Counted from the first letter of the stretch, positions 1 through 63,195 are shown. The stretch is DNA of 64,000 nt from Candidatus Limnocylindrales bacterium (GCA_038230295.1 JBBRNM010000004.1:2235-66234), one strand, 5' to 3'. The notes: generated by a model not told the origin, from the letters alone. Program-made: numbers and translations.

Positions 1-3000
1 CTCGCAGCCGCCCGAACACGCTGCGATAGCCTTCCAGCGCGACAGCCGGCGATCCTTCGAGGGCGGCGATTCCGGCCCTTGTGCCGTCGAGCCTGGCGCT
101 CTCGTAGGGCGAGCCGCTGTCGGGCTGCTGGGCCGCACGATCCGAGGCTTGGCGCGCTCCGTTCACGTCGCCTGCCCAGAGAGCCGCGCGAGCCGCTGCC
201 TGCAAGGCCGTCAAATTTGCACGTGGGGCCAGATCGCCAGCCGCCACGTACCCGCGGTAGGCCGCCTCGAGCGCACCGCTGACGAGCGCGACGTCTGCGC
301 GGATGTACTGGGCCCACGCCGCGGCCCAGTCAGACGACGACGAGTCGGGTCCGGCCGCCACGCCAGCCGCATCGATGAGAGCCAGCAGGTCGTCGGCGGG
401 CTCGCCGCGCGCAACTCGCAGGATCGCCAACGAACCCACCACGGAGATGGGAGCGTCGCCGGATCGTTCAGCGAGCACGTCGACCCCCCACCGGATGGCC
501 TCATCCCAATCGGCGCCGATGTTCTGGGCGAGGCCCATGAGCTGCCAGACCACCCAGTCGAACGTCTGCCGGTCGCCGACGCGTTCAGCGAGGGCAAGCG
601 AGTTCCGCAGCAGCGCGAACGACCCCACCGGATCGTGGTCGGCCGTGGCGCCGGCGAGGTTCGCGCTGGCGCGAAGCTCCGCGGCGACGAACCCTCCTGC
701 GCGAGCGACGTCCGCCGCCGCGGCATGGAGGGCGAGGCCCTCGCGCGGCCGGCCGAGCTGGCTGAGGGCTGCGGCCTTGTTGTTGAAGCCGTCGGCGATC
801 ACGTCGAGGAGGCCGAGGCGCTCCGCGATCGGCAGCGCCTCGTCGGCGATCTCGACGGCCCGCGCCGGGAACAAAGAGCGGAACAGAACCCGCGACAGGT
901 TTACGAGAAGCCGAGCCCGTATGGGTTCGGGAGTGTCCGCCGAAAGGGCTGCGGCGGCCCCCTCGAGCAATCCGAGAGCCTCGACGGGCTCCTCCTTCTC
1001 GAGGTGGATCATCGCCAACTCTGCTGTCGCCAGGGTTGCACCCTCGGCGTCGCCTGCGGCGCGGAAACCGTCGATCGCATCCTTCACAAGGTCCTCTGCC
1101 TGAACCTGGTGGCCGGCGCGGGACGCGGAGATCGCCGCGGCCAACCGCGTATCCGCCGCGTCGCCCGGGTCCGTCGTGACGACGAGCGCCTGCAGGAGGT
1201 GGGTCACGGCCTGTTCATGTGCGCCCAGGGCGACCGCTCGATCCGCGGCAGCCCGGAGCGCCAGGCGGGCCTGCGTCGCGACCGCGTCGGCCTCAGGGCC
1301 TTCAGACGATGCCTGGAAGGCGGCCACGAAGTGTGCCGCCAGGGCGCCGGCGAGCTCTTCGTCGCCGATCGTCTCGAAGTAGCGAGCGACCGCGAGATGG
1401 CGTCTTCGGCGATCCCGGCGCGCGAGCGTCGCGTAGGCAACCTCGCGGATGAGCGACTGCACGAAGCGGTACTGGCCCCGCTCCGGCGAGCGCGGATCGG
1501 CTTCGATCTCGAGGAGCTGTCGCCGGACCAGCCGCCTCAGGGCGACCTCGAGGTCGGCCTCGCTCCGCCCGGAAACGGCCTCGAGCGCGGGGATCGAGAA
1601 CGATTGGCCGAGGACGCCCGCGTCCTGAATCAGTGCGCGGTCGGCGGGGTCGAGGCCGTCGAGGCGGGAGGCGATCAACGATCTGAGCGTCTCAGGGATG
1701 GCCAGTTCGGCCAAGTCGCCGACCGGCCGGTAGCCCCCATCGACCAGCTCGAGCCGTCCATCCGCGAGGAGTGCTCGGATCATCTCGACGGCGTAGAGGG
1801 GGATCCCGTCGGCACGGGAGAGAATTGCTTCCACCGCGGCCTCCGGCAGCCCCGGCGCGAGACCGGCGAGCAGCTCCCGCATCTCGTCCCCGGAGAGTGG
1901 ATCGAGGGCAACGGCCGTGAAGCCTCGACGGCCCGCGCCCCAGTCCGGTCGGCGCTCGAACAGCTCTGGCCGAGCCAGCGTGACCACCAGCAACGGGACG
2001 CCGTGCGACCACTCGACGAGATGGTCGATGAAGTCGAGCAAGCCGGCGTCGGCCCAATGGAGGTCCTCGAAGAGCAGAACTGGCGTGCCTCGGAGCGCGA
2101 TCCGCTCGAAGAGGATGCGCCACGCGGCAAACAGCTTCTCCCGACCGCCCGGCGGCGGCGGACCCAGTCCCAGGAGCGTCAGCAATGCGGGCTCGACCCA
2201 GCTCCGATCGGCAGGCTCCGGGACGAACTCCGCCACCGTCCGCGCGATGGCCGCTCGCGTCGTGGCGTCGTCGTCTCCCTCGGCGAGACCGGCGCGGCGC
2301 CGGACCATTTCCCCGAGGGCCCAGAACGCGATCCCGTCACCGTAGGCCGGCGACCGGCCGTGGTGGAAGATGGTCGGCTCCTCGAATGCCTTGAGGTGCT
2401 TCTCGAACTCGAACGCGAGCCGGGACTTGCCGATGCCAGCGGGCCCAATGATGGACACGTGCCTGGCCCGGCGGTCGCGCGTCGCAGCCAGCACGGCGTC
2501 CTTGAGCAGCCGGAGCTCGCCCGTCCGGCCGACGAACGGTGGCTCAGGCAAGCCCGAGGCCACGTGCCCGCTCGGTTGCGCCGTGACCCGAAGGGCCCGC
2601 CACGCCAGGACCGGGCTCGACTTGCCCTTCAGCACCTGTTCTCCCGCCGGCTCGAACGCAATGGCGTCGGATGCGGCCCGCTGTGTCGCGTCGCCCACCA
2701 GGACGGTCCCCGGCGCGGCCACCGATTGCAGGCGGGCCGCCGTGTTCACGAGATCGCCGGCGACCATGCCCTGATTCGTGGCTCCGAGGGTGACCGCGGC
2801 CTCGCCGGTGAGGACGCCGGCCCGAGCCTGAATCGTCGGCCCGATGGCTACGACCCCTTCAACGAGATCCAGCGCGGCCCGGACTGCCCGCTCGGCGTCG
2901 TCCTCGCGAGCAATGGGAGCTCCCCAGACTGCCATCACGGCGTCGCCGATGAACTTTTCGACCGTGCCGCCGTAGCGCTCGATCACCTCACGGGCGGTGT

Positions 3001-3337
3001 CGAAATAAAGCGACAGTGCCTCGCGAACCTCCTCGGCATCGCGATCGGCGGCGAAGGGCGTGAACCCGACAAGGTCGGCGAACAGCACGGTGACGAGGCG
3101 GCGCTCGGCGACCGGGTTGTCGGCCGGCTGACGAGCCTCGGCCGGGCCTGCGCGGGAGCCGGCGACGACGGCCGTCGGTACACCCTCGTCGAGTGGGGTC
3201 GCGCATTCCCCGCAGTACTTCGCGTCCGAAGGGTTGAGCGTGCCGCATGACGGGCAGACCGCTGCCAACCGCGACGCGCACTCCTTGCAGAACTTGCGGC
3301 CCGACTCGTTCTCGGGCCCGCAGTTGGCGCAGATCAC
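1..3337 (-). CDS. Multidomain signalling protein: double zinc ribbon + class III adenylate/guanylate cyclase + P-loop (AAA/STAND-like) ATPase, probably followed by helical/TPR-like repeats; the 3' end runs off the left edge
   Basis: Absent from the ORF track because there is no stop inside the window. Hand translation of the minus strand from GTG (complement of 3335-3337) gives VICANCGPENESGRKFCKECASRLAAVCPSCGT. Complement of ~3061-3120 reads NPVAERRLVTVLFADLVGFT (cyclase domain start). Complement of ~2420-2460 reads HVSIIGPAGIGKSR (Walker A). The C-terminal repeat region is inferred from family architecture only. Plus-strand ORF 149..3250 is its antisense shadow. Confidence 0.8.
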   Translation of the reverse strand, partial: MICANCGPENESGRKFCKECASRLAAVCPSCGTLNPSDAKYCGECATPLDEGVPTAVVAGSRAGPAEARQPADNPVAERRLVTVLFADLVGFTPFAADRDAEEVREALSLYFDTAREVIERYGGTVEKFIGDAVMAVWGAPIAREDDAERAVRAALDLVEGVVAIGPTIQARAGVLTGEAAVTLGATNQGMVAGDLVNTAARLQSVAAPGTVLVGDATQRAASDAIAFEPAGEQVLKGKSSPVLAWRALRVTAQPSGHVASGLPEPPFVGRTGELRLLKDAVLAATRDRRARHVSIIGPAGIGKSRLAFEFEKHLKAFEEPTIFHHGRSPAYGDGIAFWALGEMVRRRAGLAEGDDDATTRAAIARTVAEFVPEPADRSWVEPALLTLLGLGPPPPGGREKLFAAWRILFERIALRGTPVLLFEDLHWADAGLLDFIDHLVEWSHGVPLLVVTLARPELFERRPDWGAGRRGFTAVALDPLSGDEMRELLAGLAPGLPEAAVEAILSRADGIPLYAVEMIRALLADGRLELVDGGYRPVGDLAELAIPETLRSLIASRLDGLDPADRALIQDAGVLGQSFSIPALEAVSGRSEADLEVALRRLVRRQLLEIEADPRSPERGQYRFVQSLIREVAYATLARRDRRRRHLAVARYFETIGDEELAGALAAHFVAAFQASSEGPEADAVATQARLALRAAADRAVALGAHEQAVTHLLQALVVTTDPGDAADTRLAAAISASRAGHQVQAEDLVKDAIDGFRAAGDAEGATLATAELAMIHLEKEEPVEALGLLEGAAAALSADTPEPIRARLLVNLSRVLFRSLFPARAVEIADEALPIAERLGLLDVIADGFNNKAAALSQLGRPREGLALHAAAADVARAGGFVAAELRASANLAGATADHDPVGSFALLRNSLALAERVGDRQTFDWVVWQLMGLAQNIGADWDEAIRWGVDVLAERSGDAPISVVGSLAILRVARGEPADDLLALIDAAGVAAGPDSSSSDWAAAWAQYIRADVALVSGALEAAYRGYVAAGDLAPRANLTALQAAARAALWAGDVNGARQASDRAAQQPDSGSPYESARLDGTRAGIAALEGSPAVALEGYRSVFGRLR

Positions 3338-3696
3338 GGCCGCAGCGTAGCGGAGCCACGAGATCAAGCGGGAGCCATGAGCGCCCCGAGTCAGTCGACG
3401 TGCCTCGATCGGCACGATCAGGCCGCCAAGGCCGCCGAGGGCGAGATCCTCGAGCAGATGCATCGCCACCTCGCGCCCGTCAACGGCACGGGACGCTGAT
3501 CCCGCCAGGGCGTTAGCGCGGAGCGGTCTCGACCCTGTGCGAAATGAGCGGAGATGAGAATCGAGGAAGGTGGCACGAGGCAGGCGTGAGCGGGGGTTAG
3601 GCGAAAGGCTCGGACGGAACAACCAGAGTCCGAAGCTCTAAACTGAGCGCGGCCCCCAGCTGATCCGGCTCAGCCCACGCCGGCGGAGGTCGCTTC

Positions 3697-3842: not shown

Positions 3843-5945
3843 GGCCGACAGTCATGTCCGGCAGGTCGCGGCGGGGCGGCTGGAACGGAACCTCTCGGTG
3901 TTCTGGAGCGTAGACACCAGAGAGACAGGTATTCGGAGGCGCGGATCACGGCAGGCGGGATCGCAAGCGAAGTCAAGAGCCGGCTGAACATCGTCGACGT
4001 GGTCGGCGAGACAGTGCAGCTGAAGAAGGCGGGCACCACCTACAAGGGACTCTGCCCGTTCCACGGCGAGAAGACGCCGTCGTTCACGGTCACCCCGGGC
4101 CGGGACTCCTGGAAGTGCTTCGGCTGCGGCCTGGGCGGCGACGTCTTCAGCTTCGTCATGCAGCGCGACTCGGTGACCTTCCCTGACGCGTTGCGAACGC
4201 TCGCCGCGAAGGCCGGCGTCGAGATCGACGAGCGGACCAAACGCGAGGATGCCCATCGGGCCCGACTCCGGGATGTCTTCGAGACCGCGATCGCGTTCTA
4301 CCACCAGGTGCTGACCGCCACGACCGTCGGCGCGCCGGCCCTGGACTACCTCCGCGGCCGCGGCTTCAGCGACGCGACGATCGAGGCCTTCCAGCTCGGC
4401 TGGGCGCCGGAGGGCTGGGACGTCCTGAGTCGCAAGCTCGTCGAGAAGCGGGCGATCAAGCCCGATGAGCTCGTCGAGGTCGGCCTCGCGTCGCCCGGCC
4501 GCTCGCAATCTCGCGGGGTCGGCATCATCGACAAGTTCCGGGGCCGCGTCCTGTTCCCGATCCGGGATCAGAACGGCGCGGCGGTCGGCATGGGCGGCCG
4601 TATCCTCGGTTCCGAGTCGGAAGCGAACGAGCGCGCGGCGGCCGCCGGTCGCACCGCAGGGCCCAAGTACCTGAACTCGCCCGGGACGCCGCTCTTCGAC
4701 AAGAGCCGGACGCTGTACCTCATCGATAAGGCCAAGACCTCGATCCGGAAGTCGGGCCAGGCGGTGATCGTAGAGGGCTACACCGACGCGCTGATGGCCC
4801 ATCAGGCCGGCTTCGACAACGTCGTCGCCTCCCTCGGCACGGCGCTGACGCCGGGGCAGGTCGGCCTGCTGACGCGCTACGCGAAGCGGATCGCGCTGGC
4901 GTACGACGTCGACGCCGCGGGCCAGAAGGCCGGCACGTTCGGCGTCCAGGCCCTCCAGGGTCTGATCGGCCAGCTCGCCGCGACGGAGAGCGGCATCGAG
5001 CTCGACGAGGTCCGCGTCGTTCGTCTGCCCGACGGCAAGGATCCCGACGAGGTCCTCCGCGACTCGCCCGACCGCTGGCGCGAGGAGGTCCGGACCGCGC
5101 AGCCGATCGTCGAGTACCTCATCGATACCTACTCGAGGACGTACGACCTCAAGACGCCGGGTGGCAAGGCTCGCTTCGTCGATGCCCTGATGCCGACGAT
5201 CCGGGCCGTTCCGAACCCGGTCATGCGCGACGCCTACCTCCAGCAGGTCCGCCAGACCTCCGGCGTGGAGGAGCGGATCCTCCTCGAGGTGTTGCGGGGC
5301 ACCCGGCTGGGCGGCGCGTCCGGCCTCGCCACGATCGCGACAGGTCAAGGCGCCTCGGGCAATCGACCGGCGACCCGGGACGGCGGCTTCTCGGCCGATG
5401 CCGTCATCTCGTCCGCGGATTCGCTCCCGGTCGGCGACATCCTGCGCGGCGTCCTGCCGCAGGAGGCGGAGCTCCTTCGCCTGATCCTGCTGGTCCCCGA
5501 GATCCAGCTCAAGGTCGTCGACGAGATCGGTCCGGACCAGCTCCCGAGCACCGTCGCCCGCGAGCTCTTCAAGGCCGTGGTGTTCGCCAGGGAACCCAAC
5601 GACGAGGGCGTGCATCCGCCGTTCAGCCTGACGGGGCTCGTTCAGTCGCTCGATCCCGAGACGGCTGCCCTGGCCCAGGCCGTCCTCGCTCGCCGCGACC
5701 CGAACCCGAGGGAGCTGACACAGGCGGACCTCGCCTACGAGATCGAGCGACTCACGATCGATCTCGAGGAACGGGCTCTCGACGAACGCTCCGAATACCT
5801 GCAATCCGCCCTGGCCGAAGCCGAGCAGACCGGCGACCGAGACTCGGTCGACCGCCTCTCGCTCGAAGGCCAGGCCATGAACGACCAGCGGCGCTCGCTC
5901 CATCGACGCCGCGACCAGACCAAGCTCATCACCGCCAGGAGGTAG
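3837..5945 (+). CDS. dnaG: DNA primase DnaG
   Basis: Zinc finger [30 protein letters not shown]; TOPRIM region [17 protein letters not shown]. The ORF-track start is TTG 3837, but the homology-expected N-terminus ([20 protein letters not shown]) begins at ATC 3945, preceded by GGAGG, so the true start is uncertain. Confidence 0.9.
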
Positions 5946-19514: not shown

Positions 19515-19979
19515 ATGATGTCCGTTCTCCTCCGCCACTCCCGTGGACTCTTCGTCGCCCTTCTGGCGCTCGGCCTCTCGGCAAGCCTGGCCTTGGCCGG
19601 TCAACCCGCTACATCGACGCACGGGCTCCAGTCATCGGCAGGCCAGACCGACGCGAGCGAGGCCCCGGACGCGAGTGAAGCTCCGGAAGCCACCGAGGCC
19701 CCCGACGCGAGCGAAACGCCCGACGCCAGCGAGACGACGAACGCGAACGGCTCGACGACCACCAGCGACAACTGCACCACCGATCCCGCGACCCTGACGC
19801 CGGAGCAGCTCGCCGCCGCGAGCCATGGCTCGATCGTCTGCTGGGCAGCCCAGCAGCCCACGCCGGGTAGCTACGCCAACCACGGCGCGTGGGTGCGGCA
19901 CTGGGCCCAGATGAAGTTCGATGCGAACGGCCTCCCGATCCTCAAGGCTACGCACGGCAAGTCCGCCCACAACAACTAG
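19515..19979 (+). CDS. Secreted hypothetical protein with acidic hexapeptide repeats
   Basis: Signal peptide MMSVLLRHSRGLFVALLALGLSASLALA. Five DASEAP-like repeats. C-terminal Cys/Trp/His-containing domain CTTDPATL...IVCWAAQQ...HGAWVRHWAQ. Confidence 0.7.
   Translation: MMSVLLRHSRGLFVALLALGLSASLALAGQPATSTHGLQSSAGQTDASEAPDASEAPEATEAPDASETPDASETTNANGSTTTSDNCTTDPATLTPEQLAAASHGSIVCWAAQQPTPGSYANHGAWVRHWAQMKFDANGLPILKATHGKSAHNN
19650..19739 (+). repeat. 5 x 18-nt in-frame tandem repeat (DASEAP/DASETP units)
   Basis: gacgcgagcgaggccccg / gacgcgagtgaagctccg / gaagccaccgaggccccc / gacgcgagcgaaacgccc / gacgccagcgagacgacg. Confidence 0.85.
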
Positions 19980-20086: not shown

Positions 20087-21097
20087 TCAGGAGCCCTCGC
20101 TGCGGACCATGGCGATCGCGTTCTCGAGTCGAAGCTTCGCGATGGTCAGGTACTTCGCCAGGTTCGCCCGGTCCACGGCCCCGATCGACATCACGACATC
20201 GGGTGACCGAAGGACGTCGAGGACGGCCTCGACGCCATCCGCGAGCTGCTGCTTGGCGGTGACGAGCGAGTCGTCTCGGAGCGGTGCTGCGGCCTTGCGC
20301 CGGCCGGTCCATGCGGCGTCCGCCTCCGCCTCCGTGTCGTCGGTCGGCTCCCCGACGGCCGTGTTGTCGTTCTCGATTGCGACGACCGATCGCGGCCGGC
20401 GACCCTCGATCTTCTCGCGCAGCTTGATGAGCGTCAGCTCGCCCCGAGCCACCTGATCCGTCAGGCGCTTCCGCTTCTTCGGGTCCTCGATCTTCATCAG
20501 CTCGTAGGCGTGCGAAAGGGTGTCTTTGCGCAAGGACACCAACTCTCGAACCTCTGCAGGCGCGTCGGCGAGCCGCAGCCGGTTCTCGAGGTAGCCCTTG
20601 TCCTTGCCGAGCTTCTGAGCGAGCTTCCGCACCGAGTAGCCATGTTCGTGGACCATGCGGTCGAACATACCGGCCTCGTCGAGGGGCGAGAGATCCTCGC
20701 GCTGGAGGTTCTCGATGATCGAGATCTCGAGCGCGGTGTCGTCGTCGATGTCCTCGACGAGTGCCGGGATGGTGGCCAGGCCGGCGACCTTGGAGGCTCG
20801 CCAGCGCCGCTCGCCGGCGATGAGCTGGAACTGATTGTCGTCCAGCGGCCGGACGAGGATCGGCTGCAGAACGCCGTGCTCCCGGATGGACGCGGCAAGC
20901 TCCTCGATCGTCGATTGGTCGATGACCATCCGGGGCTGCTGCGGGTTCGGGACGATGCGATCGACGTCGATGGTTCGGACACCGCGCGACGAGCGACCCT
21001 GGCGATCGTTCGACAGGAGGCTGACGATGGCGGGAGAGAGCTCACGCTCCTCCGAGAGGCGACGCGCGGCCGCCGCGCGGAAATCAGTTCTGGCCAA
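20087..21097 (-). CDS. parB: Chromosome partitioning protein ParB (Spo0J family) with a divergent HTH and a long C-terminus
   Basis: IVPNPQQPRMVIDQSTIEELAASIREHGVLQPILVRP...LIAGERRWRASKVAG (GERR arginine patch). Start placed at TTG 21097 (GAGGTGG upstream), overlapping the parA stop by 14 nt. The track start at 21157 is less likely. Confidence 0.9.
   Translation of the reverse strand: MARTDFRAAAARRLSEERELSPAIVSLLSNDRQGRSSRGVRTIDVDRIVPNPQQPRMVIDQSTIEELAASIREHGVLQPILVRPLDDNQFQLIAGERRWRASKVAGLATIPALVEDIDDDTALEISIIENLQREDLSPLDEAGMFDRMVHEHGYSVRKLAQKLGKDKGYLENRLRLADAPAEVRELVSLRKDTLSHAYELMKIEDPKKRKRLTDQVARGELTLIKLREKIEGRRPRSVVAIENDNTAVGEPTDDTEAEADAAWTGRRKAAAPLRDDSLVTAKQQLADGVEAVLDVLRSPDVVMSIGAVDRANLAKYLTIAKLRLENAIAMVRSEGS
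20520..20539. repeat. Palindromic motif copy A: GTGTCTTTGCGCAAGGACAC (inside parB)
   Basis: Read directly. It is the exact reverse complement of copy B and encodes VSLRKDT of ParB. Confidence 0.9.
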
Positions 21098-21854
21098 GGT
21101 CGACCACCTCCCGGGCAAGCTCGCGATAGGTTCGTGCCGCCTCCGAGTGGCCGGCATAGACGGTGATGGGTCGGCCCACGAGCGGCGCCTCGCCGAGCTT
21201 TACCGTCGTGCGAACGATCGACGTGAAGACATGGTGATCGCCCACCACGCGGAGCTCTTCGAGCATGTCCCGTGCCAGGTTCGTGCGACCGTCAAAGAAC
21301 GTGGGCAGGAGGCCCAGGATCTTGAGCCGGCGGTTGAGCTTGAGGCGAATCGCGTTGATGACCTTGACGAGGTTGTTCAAGCCCTTCATCGCGTAGTACT
21401 GCGTCTGGACCGGGATGATGACGCCGTCGGCGGCGACGAGTCCGTTCACCGTGAGCAGGCCGAGGTTCGGTGGGCAATCGATGAGGGCGTAGTCGTAGCG
21501 TTTTCGCAGCCGACCATCGAGCGCGTCGCGGAGGAGTGATTCGCGACCCAGCATCGTGAACAGCTCCCCTTCCGTCGCGGCGAGGTCGATGTGCGACGGC
21601 GCGACGTCGATCCCCTCGGTCTCGGTCGCGCGGATGATCTCGTCGATCGTCGCCCGGCCCACGAGCACATCGGCCATCGACGTCTCGACCGTGTTTAGAT
21701 TGATGCCGAGTCCTGCGGTGAGGTTCGCCTGCGGATCCATGTCGATGCACAGGATGCGAAGGCCGTCTTCCGCGAGCGCCCCCGCCAGGTTGATCGTCGT
21801 TGTCGTTTTGCCGACCCCGCCCTTTTGATTGGCGATTGCGATCACGTTGGTCAC
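21084..21854 (-). CDS. parA: Chromosome partitioning ATPase ParA/Soj
   Basis: Deviant Walker [24 protein letters not shown] start with GAGGTGAG upstream. Confidence 0.95.
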
Positions 21855-21972
21855 CGGAGACTCACCTCTGCTTCGGGGCTGCCCTCGCGGCGGCGGGGGA
21901 TTGCGGGCGCTGATTCGAGCGGCGGCCGGGGCGTCGATCGTACCTCACGGAGCATCGAGCGGAGGCAACGAC

Positions 21973-21981
21973 TTATCCACA
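21973..21981 (+). promoter_or_regulatory. DnaA box, perfect consensus TTATCCACA
   Basis: Read directly in the parA/pccB divergent intergenic region, 119 nt upstream of the parA start. Confidence 0.6.
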
Positions 21982-22005
21982 GGATGGCCGAGTTGTGCAC
22001 CGAAG

Positions 22006-22014
22006 TGTGGATAG
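22006..22014 (-). promoter_or_regulatory. DnaA box in inverted orientation (TGTGGATAG = CTATCCACA, 8/9)
   Basis: Read directly, 24 nt from the first box, so the two boxes face each other. Confidence 0.55.
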
Positions 22015-22100
22015 TCAGGCTGCCCGTCGATATGCCGAAACGACGCTCGGACGCGTCACACGCGCGGACTATCATGGCGCCACATCCGCTGCCGATGCGG

Positions 22101-22120
22101 GTGTCCTTGCGCAAAGACAC
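22101..22120. repeat. Palindromic motif copy B: GTGTCCTTGCGCAAAGACAC (pccB leader or first codons)
   Basis: Read directly; 20/20 reverse complement of copy A. Confidence 0.9.
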
Positions 22121-22142
22121 GCGACCCGACGGAGCAGACGCC

Positions 22143-23696
22143 GTGCCGACGAATGATGAACGACTCGCGCGGCTGGATGAGATGCGCGCCGAATCGCTGC
22201 TCGGTGGCGGTCCGGCGCGAGTCGAGCGCCAGCACGCAGCCGGGAAGCTCACGGCGCGGGAGCGAATCGAGCTCCTGCTCGACCCGGATTCATTCGTCGA
22301 ACTGGACGCCTTCGTCACCCATCGCTCGACGGACTTCGGACTGGCCGATCAGCGTCCGCTCGGCGATGGGGTCGTCACCGGACACGGCGCAATCGATGGT
22401 CGCTCGGTCTTCGTCTTCAGCCAGGACTTCACGGTGTTCGGTGGTTCCCTCTCGGAGGCATACGCCGAGAAGATCTGCAAGGTCGTCGACCTCGCGATGA
22501 AGGTCGGCGCGCCAATCGTTGGACTCAACGATTCCGGAGGCGCCCGAATCCAGGAAGGCGTCGCGTCGCTCGGCGGCTACGCGGAGATCTTCCTGCGCAA
22601 CGTGCTGGCGTCAGGCGTGATTCCGCAGATCTCCGTCGTCCTCGGGCCGTGCGCCGGCGGGGCCGTCTATTCGCCGGCGATGACCGACTTCACCGTGATG
22701 GTCGAAGGGACGAGCTACATGTTCGTGACCGGTCCCAACGTTGTCCGCACCGTGACCCACGAGGAGGTCGACTCCGAATTTCTCGGAGGCGCGATGACCC
22801 ATACGACGAGGAGCGGCGTCGCGCATCTGGCCGCGGCCGACGAAGCCGAAGCGCTCGCCGCCGCGCGACGACTCCTTGGCTTCTTGCCATCGAACAATCT
22901 CGAGCGACCACCGATCGTCGAGACACAGGATCCGCGTGATCGGATGGATGCTGCGCTCGACGCAGTCGTTCCCGACGACGCCGCAACGCCCTACGACATG
23001 CACGAGGTCATCCGGCGCGTCGTCGACGACGGATCGTTCTTCGAGATCCAGCCGGGCTGGGCCGGCAACATCCTGATCGGCTTTGCGCGACTGGGCGGTC
23101 GAGCCATCGGGATCGTCGCGCAGCAGCCGGCCGTCCTTGCTGGGGCGCTGGATATTGATGCATCCGTGAAGGCCGCCCGGTTCGTCCGAACGTGCGATGC
23201 ATTCAACGTCCCGATCGTGTCGTTCGTCGACGTGCCGGGATTCCTGCCCGGCGTCGGGCAGGAGCACGGCGGCATCATCCGCCACGGGGCGAAGCTGCTC
23301 TACGCGTACTGCGAGGCAACGGTTCCCAAGCTGACCGTGATCACCCGTAAGGCTTATGGCGGCGCCTACGACGTCATGAGCAGCAAGCACATTCGCGGCG
23401 ACATGAATTTCGCCTGGCCGAGCGCGGAGATCGCCGTCATGGGCGCCGACGGCGCCGTCGCGATCATCTTCAAAAATGAGATCGCGGCCGCCACGGATCC
23501 TGAGGCGGAGCGGCGGCGCCTCGTCGTGGATTACGAGCGGCAGTTTGCGAACCCCTACATTGCGGCGGCCCGCGGTTACGTGGATGCGGTGATCAAGCCG
23601 TCGGAGACCCGGCCGCGGCTCATCGCCGCCCTGGAGATGCTCGCCGACAAGCGGGACGCCAACCCCAGGAAGAAGCATGGCAACATCCCGCTGTAG
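22143..23696 (+). CDS. pccB: Propionyl-/acyl-CoA carboxylase carboxyltransferase (beta) subunit
   Basis: [50 protein letters not shown]...[11 protein letters not shown]. Start set at GTG 22143 by homology; ATG 22095 or ATG 22074 are possible. The track ORF start at 21825 is rejected. Confidence 0.9.
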
Positions 23697-23697
23697 G

Positions 23698-23717
23698 CCG
23701 TCTTTGCGCAAAGACGG
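23698..23717. repeat. Palindromic motif copy C: CCGTCTTTGCGCAAAGACGG (perfect 20-bp palindrome)
   Basis: Read directly. It starts 2 nt after the pccB stop codon. Confidence 0.9.
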
Positions 23718-23760
23718 TGGCGGCAGGTGACGGTGGCGGCAGGTGACGGTGGCTGCGCCT
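23713..23760. repeat. 16-nt tandem repeat, about 3 units (GACGGTGGCGGCAGGT x2 + GACGGTGGCTGCGCCT)
   Basis: Read directly. The first unit overlaps the right arm of palindrome copy C. Confidence 0.85.
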
Positions 23761-23782
23761 ACGTCACGGGCGCGGCGCCTTC

Positions 23783-25375
23783 GTGAGGGGAGGCGCCCCG
23801 TTCCGTCGCGTCCTCATCGCGAATCGCGGCGAGATCGCGGTTCGCGTGATCCGCGCCTGCCGTGAGCTGGGCATCGAAACCGTCGCGGTCTACAGCGACG
23901 CCGACGCCGGCGCCGCACACGTGTACATGGCGGACCACGCCGTTCGCGTCGGGCCCGCCAATCCGGCCGAGAGCTATCTCCGGATCGACGCGATCGTCGA
24001 CGCCGTCACGGCTTCGGGCGCGGATGCCGTTCATCCGGGGTACGGCTTCCTGTCCGAGCGGGCCGCGTTCGCGCGTGCCGTGGAGGCGGCCGGCGCCGTC
24101 TTCATTGGGCCAAGCCCCGACGTCATCGATGCGCTCGGCGACAAGCTGCACGCGCGCCGGATCGCCCGCGAAGTCGGGGTCCCGTGCGTGCCGGGCTCGC
24201 TCGAGCCGGCCGCAGTCGATCGACCCGACGCGGTCGAGGGCATCCTCGCGCTCGCCACGGAGATCGGCTTCCCATTGCTCGTGAAGGCCGCCGCGGGTGG
24301 CGGCGGCCGGGGGATGCGGCGCGTCGAGGCACCCGAGGCGCTCCCGGCAGCGCTCGCGGCAGGTTCGCATGAGGCTCTGAATGCCTTCGGCGACGGGTCC
24401 GTATACCTGGAACGGGAGCTCCTGCCGGCGCGCCACATCGAGGTCCAGCTCCTGGGCGACTCAACGGGTCGGGTGATCGCCGTGGGGGAACGTGACTGCT
24501 CCCTGCAGCGTCGGCACCAGAAGCTCGTCGAGGAGGCGCCGGCTCCTGGGCTGAGCCCCACCGCTCGCTCGGCCCTCCATGCGCTGGCCGTCCGGGTTGC
24601 GACGGCCGCTGGGCTCACGAACGCGGCGACCTGCGAGTTCCTCCGGACCGAGGACGGCGCGTTCCATTTCCTCGAGGTGAACACCCGACTCCAGGTCGAG
24701 CACGGCGCGACGGAGCTCGTCACCGGGGTCGACATCGTCCAGGAGCAGCTCTTCCTCGCGGCCGGCCGGCCCCTGTCCGAGGCGGCCCTGGCGGCAGCGC
24801 GCGCCGCCGCCGAGCCGGCGTCGCATGCCATCGAGGTCCGGATCTCCGCGGAGGATCCAGGCCACGACTTCTCGCCGACGCCGGGCCGCATCAGCCACTG
24901 GCAGATGCCCGCAGGCCCGGGCGTTCGCGTCGACACAGCGGTTCGGGTGGGGGATCGGGTGCCCCCCGAGTACGACAACTTGATTGCCAAGGTCATGGTG
25001 GTCGCACCGGATCGAGACCACGCCATTGACCGGCTGGGCCGAGCCCTCGACGAGGTCGAGGTCGGCGGGATCCAGACCACGCTCCCGTTCGACCGCTTCG
25101 TCGCTCGCGATGCCTCCTTCCGGGCTGGCCGGCTGAGCACGGGCTGGGTCGAAGAGCACTGGCGAGGCGGTGCCGAGTTCGAGCGCGCGGAACGGCTCGC
25201 GAGGTTCGCGGCCGGCCTCGCCCAGATGTCCGAGGCCGCGGCAATGAGCAAGATGCCGGCCACGGTCACAACCGGGGTGACGAACAGGCCCTCAAGCGGT
25301 TCGCCCGACCCACGTCGTCCCTCCGGCTGGGCGCAGGCCGGCGTCGAGGCGGGCGTGGACCGCTGGCCGGGATGA
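23783..25375 (+). CDS. Biotin carboxylase subunit of acyl-CoA carboxylase (BC domain only, no BCCP)
   Basis: [32 protein letters not shown]...[12 protein letters not shown]...[10 protein letters not shown]. Confidence 0.95.
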
Positions 25376-26061
25376 GCCGCTCGACGGAATCGAGGAGCGG
25401 CGGGGCAGGCCCGACGATCGCCCCGACGAACGGCGCCGAGCCCGCCGAGGTCCAACGCGTGCCCGGGGAGGCCGGCCGCTCGAAGCCCGGTGGCGCCGCC
25501 GTTCGGGTCACCCTCGCGCCGGAGCACGGACCTGCCGCGGTGATGACCGTCGAGTGGGGCCGAGCCTCGATGGAAGGCGAGACCCTCTCCGCCGAGCTCC
25601 GCTGGGTCGCCGACGATCGGGCGCGCCTCGAGCCGGATGGCGTCGAGGTGCAATTCATCGAGCCGGCTGATCCTGCCCGCCTGCCGCCCGGCGTGGTTCG
25701 TCGAGAGGTGCTCGTGGGAGGCTGGCGGGTCGTGGTCGACATCGAGTCGGCGACGCGAGCGGAGCTCCGGGAGCGCGCCGGCCGTGCCGACCGCGCCGGG
25801 ATTCGCGGCGTGGCGAGCGAGATGCATGCCATGATCCCCGGGCGCGTGCTGTCGATCGCGGTCGCCGCCGGCGACATCGTCGAGGCCGGTCAGGCGGTCA
25901 TGATCATCGAGGCGATGAAGATGCAGAACGAGCTCCGGGTCCCGCGCGCCGGCGTCGTCAGCCGGATCGCGGTGGCGCCCGGCGGGAGAGTCGAGCTCGG
26001 CGACCTCCTGATCGCGCTCGAAGCACCGTCGGCCGACGCGCCGGGCCCGGCCGCCTCGTGA
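25372..26061 (+). CDS. Biotin carboxyl carrier protein with an N-terminal extension (BT-like region?)
   Basis: C-terminal biotinyl domain [28 protein letters not shown] overlap with the preceding gene. Confidence 0.85.
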
Positions 26062-27716
26062 CGGAGGATCCCGGACGGGAGCGATGGCGGAAGACGACGC
26101 AGGCCCGAGCGCTCGAGTCGGCGCCGGAGCGCAAGGAGCGCTTCGAGACGTCCTCGGGCATCGAGATCCGCGACCTCTACACGCCTGCCGAGACCGCCGG
26201 CCTCGACGAGGATCGCGATCTCGGACGCCCCGGGGAGATGCCATACACCCGCGGCGTCCAGGCCACGATGTACCGGAGCCGCCTCTGGACGATGCGCCAG
26301 TACGCCGGCTTCGCCAGCGCCGAGGAGACGAACCGCCGCTTCCGCTATCTCCTCGAGCAGGGCCAGACTGGCCTGTCCGTGGCCTTCGACCTGCCGACCC
26401 AGATGGGCTTCGACTCGGACGCCCCCGAGGCCGAGGGTGAGGTCGGGCGGGTGGGGGTGCCGATCTCGAGCCTGGCGGACATGGAGGTCCTCTTCGACTC
26501 GATCCCGTTGGGGGTCGTCTCCACCTCGATGACGATCAACTCCACGGCGGCGATTCTGGTCGCGCTCTACGTCAGCGCGGCGGAGCGCCAGGGCGTCGCC
26601 CGGGCGGACGTCTCCGGCACGGTCCAGAACGACATCCTGAAGGAGTACATCGCGCGCGGGACCTGGATCTACCCTCCGGCGCCCTCGATGCGTCTCGTGA
26701 CCGACATCTTCGAGTTCGGCGCCCGCGAGCTGCCCCGCTGGAACACGATCTCGATCTCCGGCTACCACATGCGCGAGGCCGGGGCCACCGCCGCCCAGGA
26801 GCTCGCCTTCACGCTCGCCGACGGGATCGCCTACGTCGAAGCCGCCCTGGAGCGGGGCCTCGACATCGACGCCTTCGCGCCGCGGCTGTCCTTCTTCTTC
26901 GCGGCCTGGTCCGAGCTGTTCGAAGAGGTCGCGAAGTTCCGTGCCGCCCGGCGGATGTGGGCCCGGATCGTGAAGGACCGGTTCGGGTCGTCGAACGTCC
27001 GTTCGATGGCCTGTCGGTTCCACGTCCAGACGGCCGGCTCGTCGCTCACGGCGCAGTCCGTGGACAACAACGTCGTCCGGACCACGCTCCAGGCGCTCGC
27101 GGCGGTGCTCGGCGGGGCCCAGAGCCTCCACACGAACTCCCGCGACGAGGCACTCGCGCTGCCGACCGAGAGCAGCGTCCTCCTCGCCCTGCGGACCCAG
27201 CAGATTCTCGCCTACGAGGCGGGGGTGACCGAGACCCCCGATCCGCTCGGCGGGTCGTACTTCGTCGAGTCGCTGACCGACGAGCTCGAGGCTGCCGCGC
27301 TCGAGTACCTCCGCGAGATCGATGCCGCCGGCGGCACCCTCAAGGCGCTCGACGCGGGGTTCCAGCAGCGGGCGATCCAGGAGGCGGCCTATCGGACACA
27401 GCTGGCGGTGGACCGCGGCGATCAGGTGGTCGTGGGCGTGAATCGCTTCCGGGACGAGGAGACGCACACCCCGGCGATCCAGCGGATCGACCCGGACGGG
27501 GAGCGGCGCCAGGTCGAACGCGTCCGGCGTGTCCGGGCCGATCGCGACCCGGCAGCCTGGGCCGCGACGATCCGACGCCTCGAGGACGCGGCCCGCGGGA
27601 CCGAGAATCTCCTGCCGCCGATCATCGAGGCCGTCCAGGCGTACGCGACCGTGGGCGAGATCTCCGATCGCCTTCGGGCGGCCTGGGGCGTCCATCGCGA
27701 GCTGATCACGATCTGA
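26058..27716 (+). CDS. Methylmalonyl-CoA mutase, catalytic (TIM-barrel) subunit without a B12-binding domain
   Basis: [56 protein letters not shown]. At 552 aa it ends before any cobalamin-binding domain. GTGA overlap with the BCCP gene. Confidence 0.95.
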
Positions 27717-27719
27717 CCG

Positions 27720-28214
27720 ATGCCGATCACCCCACCCGGCAGGGTCCACCACGTCGCCCTGATCGTCCGCTCGATCGAGGCCAGCCTGAGGCTGTACCGG
27801 GACATGCTCGGGATGCCGGTCGAGGCCGTGACCGACATCCCCTCCGACCGCGTCCGGATCGCCTTCCTCGGCATCGGCGAGTCGAAGGTCGAGCTCGTCG
27901 AGCCCACGGATGACACCACGGGCGTTGCCCGCTTCCTGGCCAAGCAGGGTGAGGGCTTCCACCACGTGTGCTTCGAGGTGGCGAACCTGTCGGAGGAGCT
28001 GACTCGCCTCGCGATCGAGGGGATCGAGCTCATCGACAGCGCCCCGCGGCGAGGTGCCGAAGGACCCGTGGCCTTCCTGCACCCGCGGTCGTGCCACGGC
28101 GTGCTGGTGGAGCTGATCGAGGCCCCAGGCGGGCCATCCTGGCGAGCCCTCGGCTACGCGCCGGGCTATAGATCCCAGGGCGGTCTTTGGGCCGTCATCA
28201 GAAACAGCGGGTAG
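27720..28214 (+). CDS. mce: Methylmalonyl-CoA epimerase (VOC fold)
   Basis: VHHVALIVRSIEASLRLYRDMLGM...GEGFHHVCFEV...HGVLVELIE. Confidence 0.9.
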   Translation: MPITPPGRVHHVALIVRSIEASLRLYRDMLGMPVEAVTDIPSDRVRIAFLGIGESKVELVEPTDDTTGVARFLAKQGEGFHHVCFEVANLSEELTRLAIEGIELIDSAPRRGAEGPVAFLHPRSCHGVLVELIEAPGGPSWRALGYAPGYRSQGGLWAVIRNSG

Positions 28215-52842: not shown

Positions 52843-52938
52843 GCGTGGGCCACGAGCGAATCGCGTCGGCCAGGGCTACCTCGCGCCTACCGACTGGGCT
52901 ACCCTGTGCGCAAACGCACCGCAGCGAGGACGGGAAAC

Positions 52939-60437: not shown

Positions 60438-60514
60438 GGGCGATTAGCTCAGCCGGTCAGAGCGCACGGTTCACATCCGTGAAGTCACTGGTTCGAATCC
60501 AGTATCGCCCACCA
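60438..60514 (+). tRNA. tRNA-Val (CAC)
   Basis: Cloverleaf by hand: acceptor GGGCGAT/ATCGCCC, D arm GCTCAGCCGGTCAGAGC, anticodon stem CACGG/CCGTG with loop TTCACAT, T arm ACTGGTTCGAATCCAGT, encoded CCA. Confidence 0.95.
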
Positions 60515-61966
60515 TAGTGACCTCGAGCGAGGCCGGGAGTGCGAGGACCAGGCCTCGTCTCTCGGCCTCGTCTGTTGCCTCGACGCTGACGATTCGATGG
60601 GAGCCCCGCTTTGAGCCCGACACCACGCCGAGGCGGGCGAAGGTCGCCACGGCGAGGTGACGGCGGCCTTCGTCCGAGGTCTCCCGCCAGAGCTTCTCCA
60701 GCGACGCGAGCCAGCCCAAGGCTTCGTCGGGGTCGACCTCGTCGCGCTCGGCCGGTCGGGACGTCAGTGCCTCTCGCTCGGTCCGCGCCCGCTCGATGTC
60801 CGCGACGATCTCTGCGCTGCTCCGCTGCTGGGCGCCCGTCACGATCTCGGCGGCGAGCGTCTTCAAGCGGGCCTCGAGGCGAGCCATCGCTAGCCGATCG
60901 GGCATGACGATCGTCGGCCGGAGGGCGGCCCTGATTCGCGCGGCACTGTGGCGGTTGGGTGCCACCCCGTCGAGGAGGGCGCCGACCTGTGCGTCGAGGA
61001 GTTCGCTCGGCACCTCACGCACGGGCCAGCCCGCGCAATCGGGACCATCGCGGTGGCGGTAGACCGTGATCTTCGTGCCGTTGCGTCGACCGCGGGTGTC
61101 GCCCTTGGCCGTCAAGCCGCAGGCGTCGCATACGAGCGGGCCGTTGCCCGAGAGGGGATACGTCCGGTTGCGACGGACGCGATTGCCGATCCGGGTCCGG
61201 GCGCGCCGGTACGCCTGAGCTCGCTCGATCAGGGCAGCGTCGATCGGGGCTGGAAAGCGCGTCGATCGACCGTCGCGCAGCCGTCCGGCGTAGAGGGGCG
61301 AGCGCAGGACGCCGCGGACCGACCAGAGGGTGAGCCCGGTCGTCGCAGCGATCGTGCCGTCTGCGGCGCCCTGCGCGGCGATCTCCCAGACCCGGTTCGC
61401 CGCCGGCATCGAGCCCGGGTCCGGTTCGATCAACTTGCGCTCGCCGACGCGGCGGAACCCGAGGGGGACGAGCCCGCCGCCCTGGTCTGCGTAGTCGCGG
61501 ATCTTCGCCGCATAGCCCGCGTGGACCGAGCGGGCCAGCCGGCGGCTATAGGCCTCGGCCTCGACCGTCTCGCGGGCCCAGTTCTCCCAGGCGCTCTCGT
61601 CGGAGGATAGGACTCGCTCGTCGGCGAACAGGAGCGCGGCGCCGGCCTCGTGGAGCTGGTGGCGGGCGTTCACCGCGGTTCGCAGGTCTCTGGTGAAGCG
61701 GGAGACGTAGCCGACGACGAGGATGTCGTAGTCGCGGCCGGCCCGAGCGAGCATGTCGGCGAACTGGCTCGTGCTCCCAATCGTGCGCCCGGAGTGGGCG
61801 ACCTGCCAGGCGATGCCCGTGTCGACCATGCCGAATGCGGCGATCGCCTGGGCGCGCTGCTCGCGCTGCGCCGCCGGGCCGAACCGCTCGGCCTGCCGCC
61901 CGGTCGACTCACGGCCCCAGTGGGCCGTCGACCGGCGAGGTCGTCGAGGGACTGGGGGAGCTTCAT
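60471..61966 (-). pseudogene. Large serine recombinase (phage-integrase type) with an apparent 5' frameshift
   Basis: Resolvase-core remnant DILVVGYVSRFTRD, recombinase domain, and zinc ribbon LVCDACGLTAKGD...YRHRDGPDCAGW followed by a coiled coil. The catalytic-Ser block TAHWGRESTGRQ lies upstream of the first in-frame start (61829) with no start codon. An ATG at 61966 (MKLPQSLDDLAGRR) is in another frame. The last 15 codons are antisense to tRNA-Val. Confidence 0.65.
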
Positions 61967-62400: not shown

Positions 62401-63195
62401 TCAGCCCTCGCGTGCCGCCCGCCGAAGCGTCGCGACCCGCTTTCGGACGGTCGAGTAGTCGCCAGCGGCGCCGGGCGGCCAGACGCCGGAGGTGGTCGCC
62501 TCGGCGGCGATCTGCGCCGTCTTGAGCGGCAGGCCGGAGACGTCGGCCGCCCGGATCTTCGCGATCAAGGTCGCCCGCGCCGGAGAACGTGACCCGCGCT
62601 GGCGACCCGGTGTTCTGGATGCGAGGCCCAGTGCGTGTCGCTGGAATTGAACCAGCGCGGAGACCCGCGGCCAGACCGTGTGGTCGACGTCGTTCATCAG
62701 AACCCATACCTGCCCCGGCGCGAGTCTGGCCCGGAGCGCCTCGACGTCGGCCTCGTTGACGAGAGTCGCCACGACATCGCTGGGGACACCGGGCAATGCC
62801 CGGACGCGGACCTCGACGGGCGGGGCGAGCTGCTCCCCGGTGGTGACCGACAAGAGCCATGTGAGGACGAAATGCATGATCGTTCGATCTGGCACCCCGA
62901 GGCGCTTGACCACAGGCAGCTGTTGGAACCGCCGGACCAACGAACCGATCGCCTCATCCACAGGTTGGGTGTCCGTCGCGGTCATGCTCCCGTCCGCTGG
63001 CAAGGCCTGAAACCTGGCCAGCGTGTTAGTCGCGGCGCCGGCCAGCTGCGGGTCATCCCGGATCGCCTGTGCCAGCGACGCCCCGACCTCGTCGAGCGCG
63101 CGGCGCAGGTTCGGACTCGCGAGATCCTCGAGCGCCTGCCCGGTGGGTGCTGGGCGTCGGTTAGCGCGGGTTCGTTCGCCGCCTGTCGTGCTCAC
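62401..63195 (-). CDS. Hypothetical protein (264 aa) of the island
   Basis: GTG 63195. Coding-like composition throughout: ...RRFQQLPVVKRLGVPDRTIMHFVLTWLLSVTTGEQL...GQVWVLMNDVDHTVWPRV...TLIAKIRAADVSGLPLKTAQIAAE. No family recognised. Confidence 0.6.
   Translation of the reverse strand: MSTTGGERTRANRRPAPTGQALEDLASPNLRRALDEVGASLAQAIRDDPQLAGAATNTLARFQALPADGSMTATDTQPVDEAIGSLVRRFQQLPVVKRLGVPDRTIMHFVLTWLLSVTTGEQLAPPVEVRVRALPGVPSDVVATLVNEADVEALRARLAPGQVWVLMNDVDHTVWPRVSALVQFQRHALGLASRTPGRQRGSRSPARATLIAKIRAADVSGLPLKTAQIAAEATTSGVWPPGAAGDYSTVRKRVATLRRAAREG

Follow-up and report, generated by a model that had tools for sequence, protein, structure and literature searches.

What is the function of the palindrome that occurs three times in and beside the partition genes parAB of Candidatus Limnocylindrales bacterium? 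We analysed a stretch of 64,000 nucleotides (nt) from this genome (GCA_038230295.1 JBBRNM010000004.1:2235-66234; hereafter the window), in which parA and parB diverge from an operon that begins with pccB. A sequence-only reading of the window had proposed that the palindrome is a non-canonical parS, the centromere site of the locus ParB, and had offered an operator of a dimeric pcc/mcm regulator and RNA hairpins as alternatives. The analysis below supports its leading idea. We put at roughly three in four the probability that the palindromes are a non-canonical parS of a lineage-specific ParABS system, replacing the near-universal parS, with ParB as the predicted binder.

A search of the window for GTCYTTGCGCAARGAC at up to two mismatches returns exactly three matches, at 20522, 22103 and 23700; shuffled sequence gives a mean of 0.04 matches, and none of 100 shuffles reaches three. 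The coordinates and sequences of the three copies as first read by eye proved right when checked directly, as did the statement that the window has no further full copy. The three sites fall inside 3.2 kb at a spacing of ~1.6 kb (Table 1). Copy A, within parB, lies immediately N-terminal to the S-H-A-Y segment of the ParB DNA-binding domain, and copy C starts one base past the pccB stop codon. At one mismatch the inner decamer TTTGCGCAAA has a single additional, unrelated match in the window, at 52905. The closest match to canonical parS (TGTTNCACGTGAAACA) in the 64 kb has three mismatches, which is chance level and agrees with the earlier report of no canonical parS here. Directly after copy C, in the pccB/accC spacer, stands a tandem repeat, ggtggcggcaggtgac x2.4 (23716-23753), which is probably a recent local duplication, since it was not found in the pccB/accC spacers of relatives.

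Over 20 bp, copies A and B are exact reverse complements of each other, as had been reported. The argument built on this identity, that it cannot be chance and that the nucleotide sequence is constrained or recently copied, holds in part. The DNA is constrained, as codon usage in 46 orthologues shows (below), but the outer GT/AC of the 20-mer is variable at non-coding sites of relatives, and for that reason the 20/20 identity of the two copies in this genome is partly incidental. What is conserved is the 16-bp core, or 18 bp in the form YGTC...GACR, and the spacers that surround it vary freely in relatives.

ParB homologues 78-96% identical to that of the window belong to genomes named Candidatus Limnocylindrales/Limnocylindria or Chloroflexi. 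The organism is one of the Candidatus Limnocylindria (Chloroflexota), an uncultured lineage of soil and freshwater. All six relatives fetched via ParB have parB-parA divergent from pccB, biotin carboxylase (accC), biotin carboxyl carrier protein (BCCP), methylmalonyl-CoA mutase (mcm) and epimerase genes, with the core at all three of the window's positions; parA and parB are side by side in every relative examined. When one genome per GTDB species was scanned in 8-kb tiles, the motif turned up in at least 120 of them; the site counts given from here on are among the matches listed. At least ~65 of these tiles are Limnocylindria-type par-pcc loci, and in all of them matches occur only in parB (amino acids 186-192), in the parA-pccB spacer, and at pccB/accC or other operon junctions. 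With 8 fetched loci counted in, the 16-bp core is thus placed in ~70 relatives: in parB, between the pccB -10 and the start codon, and at pccB/accC. Every relative examined has the parB-internal site at nt 561-576 of the gene, so that the motif is conserved at the same codons, apart from one exception (L019) taken up below. The parA-pccB spacer site is found at up to two mismatches in 45 of 47 related intergenic regions. The commonest class in relatives is pccB/accC (47 sites, 34 of them perfect), a spacer that is variable except for the palindrome, its only conserved element. Some relatives have additional sites at accC/BCCP, upstream of mcm or after the epimerase gene, always within the pcc-mcm operon.

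Apart from four labelled Chloroflexi, the remaining tiles listed hold single matches in unrelated phyla. Four Chloroflexi-labelled matches off the locus (L067, L070, L113 and L118) have as neighbours a thiamine pyrophosphate enzyme, a methyltransferase, FmdE and a protease, and no regulator; they were treated as chance. None of the contigs of 1-3 Mb is listed twice except for adjacent tiles of one locus, and on this sampling the motif appears confined to this locus in Limnocylindria genomes. Four typical Limnocylindria par-pcc loci, with ParA and PccB 71-88% identical to those of the window, come from records labelled beta proteobacterium (L045), Methylomirabilota (L050), Eisenbacteria (L116) and Thermomicrobiales (L122), labels that probably reflect misbinning or mislabelling of the source metagenome-assembled genomes. 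In L019 (1994-2567) mcm, not pccB, is divergent from parA, and two perfect palindromes stand 125 bp apart in the spacer.

At the parB copy, codon usage separates constraint on the DNA from constraint on the protein. Among 46 orthologues, Val is encoded by GTG at the site in 46/46 (24% elsewhere in parB), Ser by TCY in 44/44 (27%), Leu by TTG in 35/40 (6%), Arg by CGC in 45/46 (47%) and Lys by AAA in 36/45 (3%). The flanking codons (the neighbouring Leu and Thr) vary freely, and in orthologues with Val for Leu in ParB the site is just one mismatch off. Rare codons are held at this site, and the DNA sequence itself is therefore under selection, which bears out what had been surmised from the window alone.

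The variation that the sites show is distributed by half-site. The variable core positions are 4 and 13 (T/C and A/G). The 115 Limnocylindria sites comprise 50 perfect ones (T..A), 65 with one GTCC half and none with both (C..G), against 9.7 expected if the halves were independent; of the chance matches in other phyla, 20/55 have both halves deviant (Fisher p = 1e-10 vs Limnocylindria). At least one perfect half-site, GTCTTTGC, therefore seems to be required. This pattern fits a dimeric DNA-binding protein rather than an RNA hairpin in the pcc-mcm and parB transcripts that would serve processing, stability or an RNA-binding protein. Such a hairpin would agree with the position of every site in a transcribed region (pccB leader, intercistronic spacers and parB coding sequence), and copy C does fold better than shuffles (-13 kcal/mol, z = -2.4). 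The hairpins of copies A and B, however, are no stabler than shuffles (z about -1), a terminator scan found no T-tract or terminator, and the pairs do not covary: neither stem nor loop varies, and the best pair at stem position 4, C-G, is in 0/115 sites although each of the single changes is common. In the commonest form of copy B the stem would even be mismatched, C·A, on the pccB sense strand, and the sister palindromes described below cluster upstream of parA on mobile elements, in a centromere-like way. Fold energies, terminator scan and the missing C-G variant together leave the hairpin explanation very improbable.

If a dimeric protein binds the palindrome, the locus ParB is the nearest candidate. 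It passes NCBIfam TIGR00180 (161 bits vs a cut-off of 58) and fails the Noc model TIGR04285 (194 bits vs 315); its closest matches in PDB are Noc, Spo0J and ParB (E = 1e-41 to 1e-34). The translation has the N-terminal motifs of the cytidine triphosphatase (CTPase) type (NPQQPR, GERRWRA and ENLQREDL), a helix-turn-helix (HTH) and a C-terminal domain. The residues that contact parS were located by aligning ParB to Thermus Spo0J (1vz0) and Noc, with Caulobacter numbering (PMC7383237). The conserved contact set is Q162, G170, K171, S172, R173, N178, G201 and R204, of which R173 is invariant among parS binders and Q162, S172 and R204 are conserved DNA contacts (PMC7383237). In the window ParB, G170, K171 and N178 are retained, and the changes at contact positions are Q162V, S172D, R173K, T179R, A184D, G201S and R204Y; all 46 orthologues, the most distant of them 52% identical, share these substitutions. 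An exhaustive search with 50%-identity representatives gives the Limnocylindria signature as GKDKGYLENRLRLADAP...VSLRKDTLSHAYELMK, which grades via sister groups, e.g. GKGKGYIEDRLRL...RPDTLTHAREIE, to the canonical GKSRS..N.LRLL.LP...GHARALL. In 661 kb of 74 related loci, canonical parS at up to two mismatches has one match only, with two mismatches and at chance level. From the changed contact residues together with the missing canonical parS in related loci, a changed ParB specificity is therefore predicted.

Several observations weigh against a parS. All Limnocylindria sites are inside parB or on its pcc side, many of them exactly at pcc-mcm junctions, and a pcc-specific factor would give the same pattern. 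The two hypotheses are inseparable within the clade, since the parAB-pcc synteny is unbroken. L019 is without the parB-internal copy (its peptide there reads VTIRKDT, with three or more mismatches in the site), and no palindromes were seen in L131, an orphan parB outgroup from Chthonomonadales. Finally, dnaA and dnaN are not found in the 64-kb window, whose GC skew is flat and uninformative on the origin.

The most direct competitor on these grounds is a dedicated pcc/mcm transcription factor encoded elsewhere (ScfR/PccR-like, sensing propionyl-CoA), for which the palindromes would be operators and the parB copy an auxiliary or looping operator. Copy B between the pccB -10 and the start, the other copies at pcc-mcm junctions and the extra copies, always in the operon, would suit such a factor. 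PccR is reportedly an activator of pccB that acts through TTTGCAAA-type boxes (Carter and Alber, 2015). The inner core TTTGCGCAAA does resemble the TTTGCAAA boxes of the ScfR family, of which the PrpR boxes are quoted in PMC6765138.

Because parAB and pcc are never separated in Limnocylindria, the comparison was taken outside the clade. At full length the nearest outgroup ParBs share 37-38% identity with the ParB of the window (40-52% over matched stretches), and their HTH is of the intermediate type given above. Their contigs are mobile-element-like (TraG/TrwB, relaxase, Tn3 transposase, Mrr and methyltransferases) and without pcc genes. Four independent contigs contain 2, 3, 5 and 3 copies of a sister 20-bp perfect palindrome, GTGTCTGGACGTCCAGACAC, where 0 are expected (Table 1). 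Its outer arms, GTGTCT...AGACAC, are identical to those of the window parB copy GTGTCTTTGCGCAAAGACAC; the inner 8 bp alone differ, GGAC/GTCC here vs TTGC/GCAA in Limnocylindria. One copy in L129 is at the homologous parB codons (V-S-G-R-P-D-T vs V-S-L-R-K-D-T), L132 has a decayed copy, GTGTCCGTGCGCCCAGACGC, at the homologous place in parB (4210-4229), and the two main motif types never co-occur in one locus. Other exact or near-exact matches to GTGTCTGGACGTCCAGACAC are single ones in viral and metagenome contigs, mostly without detectable ParB, only L137 being multi-copy.

The arrangement of these palindromes on mobile elements is that of a plasmid centromere. Found around parAB where pcc is missing, the palindrome family therefore goes with the ParB subfamily and not with pcc, and it is mainly for this reason that we favour parS over a pcc regulator. 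In relatives the Limnocylindria motif is indeed at pcc junctions, yet the restriction to pcc/acc genes that the sequence-only reading had named as speaking against parS is not what the outgroups show. Other points tell against the regulator as well. ScfR sites are paired 8-bp boxes, unlike the single 16-18-bp palindrome with strict outer GTC/GAC arms seen here. The 64-kb window has no ScfR/XRE-type or other regulator-type HTH gene besides ParB, and none is conserved in the 21-kb relative loci; ParB is the sole regulator-type DNA-binding protein adjoining the sites, and the other DNA-binding folds of the window are RpoD and MraZ alone. Operators at the 3' ends of genes within an operon would be atypical, and there is no obvious reason to keep an operator 1.6 kb away in parB by means of rare codons. 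With related palindromes that co-vary with the ParB subfamily where pcc is missing, the dimeric regulator is clearly less likely than parS, and we consider it unlikely.

The two ParB subfamilies also allow a guess at how recognition is divided. In the Caulobacter structure residue 173 reads the outer base and residue 201 the inner base (PMC7383237). K173 is constant in both subfamilies, and positions 172, 178, 201 and 204 differ (G, D/E, T, R in the mobile-element ParBs vs D, N, S, Y in Limnocylindria). K173 would thus match the constant outer arms, and the variable positions 172/178/201/204 the variable inner bases.

Some further features of the outgroup loci were recorded. The left half of the decayed site GTGTCCGTGCGCCCAGACGC of L132 is identical to the Limnocylindria variant GTCCGTGCGC, and it may be, speculatively, that the centromere sequence arose from the conserved coding sequence for this segment of ParB. 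L133, a Herpetosiphonaceae-like element, has TGTCTGC-N4-GCAGACA at 3622 and 5849, i.e. 200 bp upstream of parA and 13 bp after parB; this is a third palindrome type sharing the GTCT/AGAC arms, in a locus with a P22 antirepressor neighbour and a ParA with an N-terminal HTH_17. The mobile-element-type parB is followed directly by the gene of a conserved protein of ~547-597 amino acids without a Pfam domain (L129 11046-12839, L130 6419-8059, L132 4765-6408; 51% identical between L130 and L132), which may be a third partition component or a replication protein. L131 and L134, the latter an HTH-only protein next to a STAND NTPase, were rejected as informative outgroups. A search of PLSDB found no close characterised ParB relative, the top match being 52% identical over 42% of the query.

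The parA-pccB spacer, which holds copy B, was studied by aligning 15 spacers and scanning 47 related ones. The order of elements is the parA Shine-Dalgarno sequence and start, a parA -10-like block, a pair of DnaA boxes, TATSAT, the palindrome, GGAG and the pccB start; the palindrome comes 3-45 bp past TATSAT, and GGAG and the pccB start codon follow 15-25 nt further. Columns T216, A217, T218, A220 and T221 of the pccB -10 are invariant in the 15 sequences. A simple sigma-70 scan gave no full consensus promoter in this region, and the -10 assignments rest on conservation only. The earlier distance of about 250 bp between copy B and parA was correct (247 bp), but the more telling position is 24 nt before the pccB start, past the conserved -10, and copy B likely overlaps or closely follows the pccB transcription start.

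That position raises the possibility that ParB does bind the sites, mainly as a KorB-like silencer of the metabolic operon and parAB, and that segregation is achieved by other means. ParB has a marginal match to the KorB Pfam model (23.3 bits vs a cut-off of 22.3), copy B is at or just past the position where pccB transcription is predicted to start, there are few sites, all of them strictly local, and the closest relatives are mobile-element ParBs. On the other hand, parB always comes with a translationally coupled gene for a Soj-type ParA, a KorA-like partner was not found, and neither a second ParB nor canonical parS was seen near the related loci (the same 661 kb). Clusters of 3-4 parS adjoining parAB are, moreover, typical of chromosomal centromeres. 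A role confined to silencing therefore seems to us quite unlikely.

The same spacer contains a DnaA-box cluster, which adjoins the palindromes and is no copy of them: TTATCCACA, then after ~11 nt TTGTKCACC within the invariant block GAGTTGTKCACCGAA, then an inverted TGTGGATAt. The first box is found in 46/47 related spacers and both boxes in 40/47; L019 also has the cluster, in the same relation to parA. No AT-rich unwinding element was found near it. Through this cluster DnaA could control parA or be titrated, or the cluster could belong to an origin; its position suggests a link between initiation and either parA expression or the local loading of DnaA.

For a non-canonical parS we propose the following mechanism. 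A dimer of the divergent ParB would recognise YGTCTTTGC/GCAAAGACR (16-18 bp) through its altered helix-turn-helix, needing one perfect half-site and tolerating one GTCC half. The 3-4 sites ~1.6 kb apart would nucleate ParB, which would close into CTP-dependent clamps and spread over parAB-pcc; clamp loading with CTP is proposed because the N-terminal motifs are conserved. The adjacent ParA would segregate the chromosome using the ParB partition complex. ParB on copy B, between the pccB -10 and the ribosome-binding site, would probably also dampen pcc-mcm transcription, as KorB does on RK2. We infer each of these steps (binding by ParB, clamp loading and spreading, the role in segregation and the repression of pccB) from comparison of sequences.

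The gene calls for parA, parB and pccB made at the outset are right by Pfam, and the features of the locus are collected in Table 1. The rest of the window is ordinary chromosome, with dnaG, rpoD, msrA/B, amtB, sucC, icd and sdhAB, and the cluster mraZ-mraW-ftsI-mraY-ftsW-murG-murB-ddl-ftsA-ftsZ. Convergent with parB is an open reading frame of 154 amino acids (19515-19979, +) without a Pfam or NCBIfam match; most relatives have a counterpart of 148-164 amino acids, missing from L001 and L002. Upstream of dnaG is an open reading frame of 1033 amino acids (149-3250, +) with high G+C at third codon positions and without a Pfam domain. Near the window end a 452-amino-acid protein (60471-61829, -) has a weak N-terminal serine-recombinase (Resolvase) match, and two DnaA-box-like sequences with one mismatch are near its gene, at 62954 and 63575.

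Table 1. Features of the par-pcc locus in the window and of the sister palindromes in outgroup loci
Feature	Sequence	Position	Strand	Basis or remarks
Copy A, GTCTTTGCGCAAGGAC	window	20522..20537		inside parB; codons Val-Ser-Leu-Arg-Lys-Asp, residues 187-192 of the 336-aa ParB
Copy B, GTCCTTGCGCAAAGAC	window	22103..22118		parA/pccB divergent region; -10 of pccB 28 nt upstream, pccB GTG 24 nt downstream
Copy C, GTCTTTGCGCAAAGAC, perfect palindrome	window	23700..23715		pccB/accC intergenic spacer; match search and conservation in relatives
parB	window	20087-21097	-	open reading frame continues to 21157, homologues 336 aa; Pfam ParB_N 3.3e-35, HTH_ParB 1.2e-16, KorB 6e-5
parA, Walker-type partition ATPase	window	21084-21854	-	Pfam AAA_31 6e-63, CbiA, ParA, MipZ; 14-nt overlap with parB start
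Candidate parA -10, TACGAT (TAGCAT in most relatives)	window	21937..21942	-	conserved block cATgCTAc in alignment; inferred
DnaA-box cluster	window	21973..22014		TTATCCACA 21973-21981 (+); weaker TTGTGCACC in block GAGTTGTKCACCGAA; CTATCCACA 22006-22014 (-)
Candidate pccB -10, TATCAT (TATSAT in relatives)	window	22070..22075	+	conservation alone
pccB-accC-BCCP-mcm-epimerase operon, methylmalonyl-CoA pathway	window	22143..28214	+	Pfam; synteny conserved in relatives
pccB	window	22143-23696	+	GTG start; Pfam
Biotin carboxylase (accC)	window	23783-25375	+	Pfam
BCCP	window	25372-26061	+	Pfam
Methylmalonyl-CoA mutase (mcm)	window	26058-27716	+	Pfam
Epimerase	window	27720-28214	+	Pfam
Two GTGTCTGGACGTCCAGACAC copies	L129	10553/10777		both within parB
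Three GTGTCTGGACGTCCAGACAC copies	L130	4552/6183/8997		48 bp upstream of parA, in parB, downstream
Five GTGTCTGGACGTCCAGACAC copies	L132	2374/2452/2530/4412/4490		three upstream of parA at 78-bp spacing, two in parB
Three GTGTCTGGACGTCCAGACAC copies	L137	2761/3509/3665		within parA-parB; contig from metagenome scan for the palindrome

Chromosomal parS is among the most conserved bacterial DNA motifs and a routine predictor of centromeres and origins. To our knowledge, natural switching of centromere specificity has so far been seen only in the Noc paralogue and in plasmids. In the literature searched neither palindrome is reported, no non-canonical parS in Chloroflexi was found, and nothing relevant was found on TTGCGCAA operators; the mobile-element ParB subfamily with GTGTCTGGACGTCCAGACAC is apparently undescribed there. 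Limnocylindria would have, class-wide, a chromosomal ParABS with a new centromere sequence and with its nearest relatives on mobile elements. If this is true, a whole, environmentally abundant class is an exception to the near-universal parS, with the switch on a chromosome, and origin or centromere prediction from parS would fail silently in it. The sister palindromes would be a ready pair of related specificities, with a code testable by few residue swaps and with possible use as locus-labelling tools. A site in the leader of a central-metabolism operon, beside DnaA boxes, suggests an unexplored coupling of segregation, replication and metabolism.

A bolder version, which we find doubtful, is that the class swapped its chromosomal ParB-parS for a mobile-element-type ParB and a new centromere, that this ParB is a KorB-like silencer, and that replication initiation, segregation and propionate/succinyl-CoA metabolism are coupled at one 300-bp intergenic hub. 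Were it so, recognition of the outer arm (K173 with GTCT) and of the inner bases (172, 178, 201, 204) would amount to a modular code for the design of orthogonal ParB/parS pairs.

Compared with canonical ParABS, the system is alike in its ParB_N and HTH_ParB domains, its TIGR00180 membership, the GERRxR and ENLQRxDL motifs and the adjacent Soj-type ParA; the sites too are 16-bp palindromes with a central C/G step, in a small cluster at parAB with one inside parB. It is unlike in that the palindrome matches ~3/8 half-site positions of TGTTNCACGTGAAACA, that the parS-contact residues are replaced (R173K, S172D, Q162V, G201S, R204Y) and canonical parS is missing, that the sites are at the promoter and junctions of a metabolic operon, and that the locus lacks its usual neighbours, rsmG/gidB, dnaA and rnpA. 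With B. subtilis spo0J and its internal parS, which had been cited as the classical case, the likeness is one of arrangement only; that site is presumably at different codons than copy A, as we read the Spo0J sequence.

Noc and its NBS site are the precedent for changed specificity within the ParB fold, where changes at 173, 179, 184 and 201 reprogramme the recognition of a 16-bp palindrome (PMC7383237). All four positions differ from ParB here too, although the residues are K, R, D and S vs Q173, K179, K184 and R201 in Noc. Unlike Noc, which is from Firmicutes, the protein here has a ParA, its sites are local rather than chromosome-wide, and it fails TIGR04285.

KorB, the ParB homologue of the IncP plasmid RK2, serves in partition and also as a global repressor, with TTTAGCSGCTAAA as its OB site. 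The likeness is in having a palindrome of its own, in the TTTxGC flavour of the half-site, in sites at or near promoters plus a centromere, and in the marginal Pfam match. The present system differs in being chromosomal and class-wide, in its even 16-bp palindrome, in the absence of any KorA-like partner seen, and in its weak sequence similarity (PDB 8qa8, E = 5e-16, N-terminal part only).

The operators of the ScfR family (PrpR/PccR/RamB) are alike in that the TTTGC..GCAAA core resembles TTTGCAAA and in their target, the propionyl-CoA carboxylase operon. They are unlike the sites here, which form one long palindrome with two extra central bases and GTC/GAC arms, with no ScfR gene nearby. The mobile-element ParB subfamily differs in the inner 8 bp, in HTH positions 172/178/201/204 and in its plasmid- or integrative and conjugative element-like contigs without pcc, and shares with Limnocylindria the GK-x-KGY-x-E-x-R signature of the HTH, K173, the outer arms, and the placing of copies in parB and upstream of parA.

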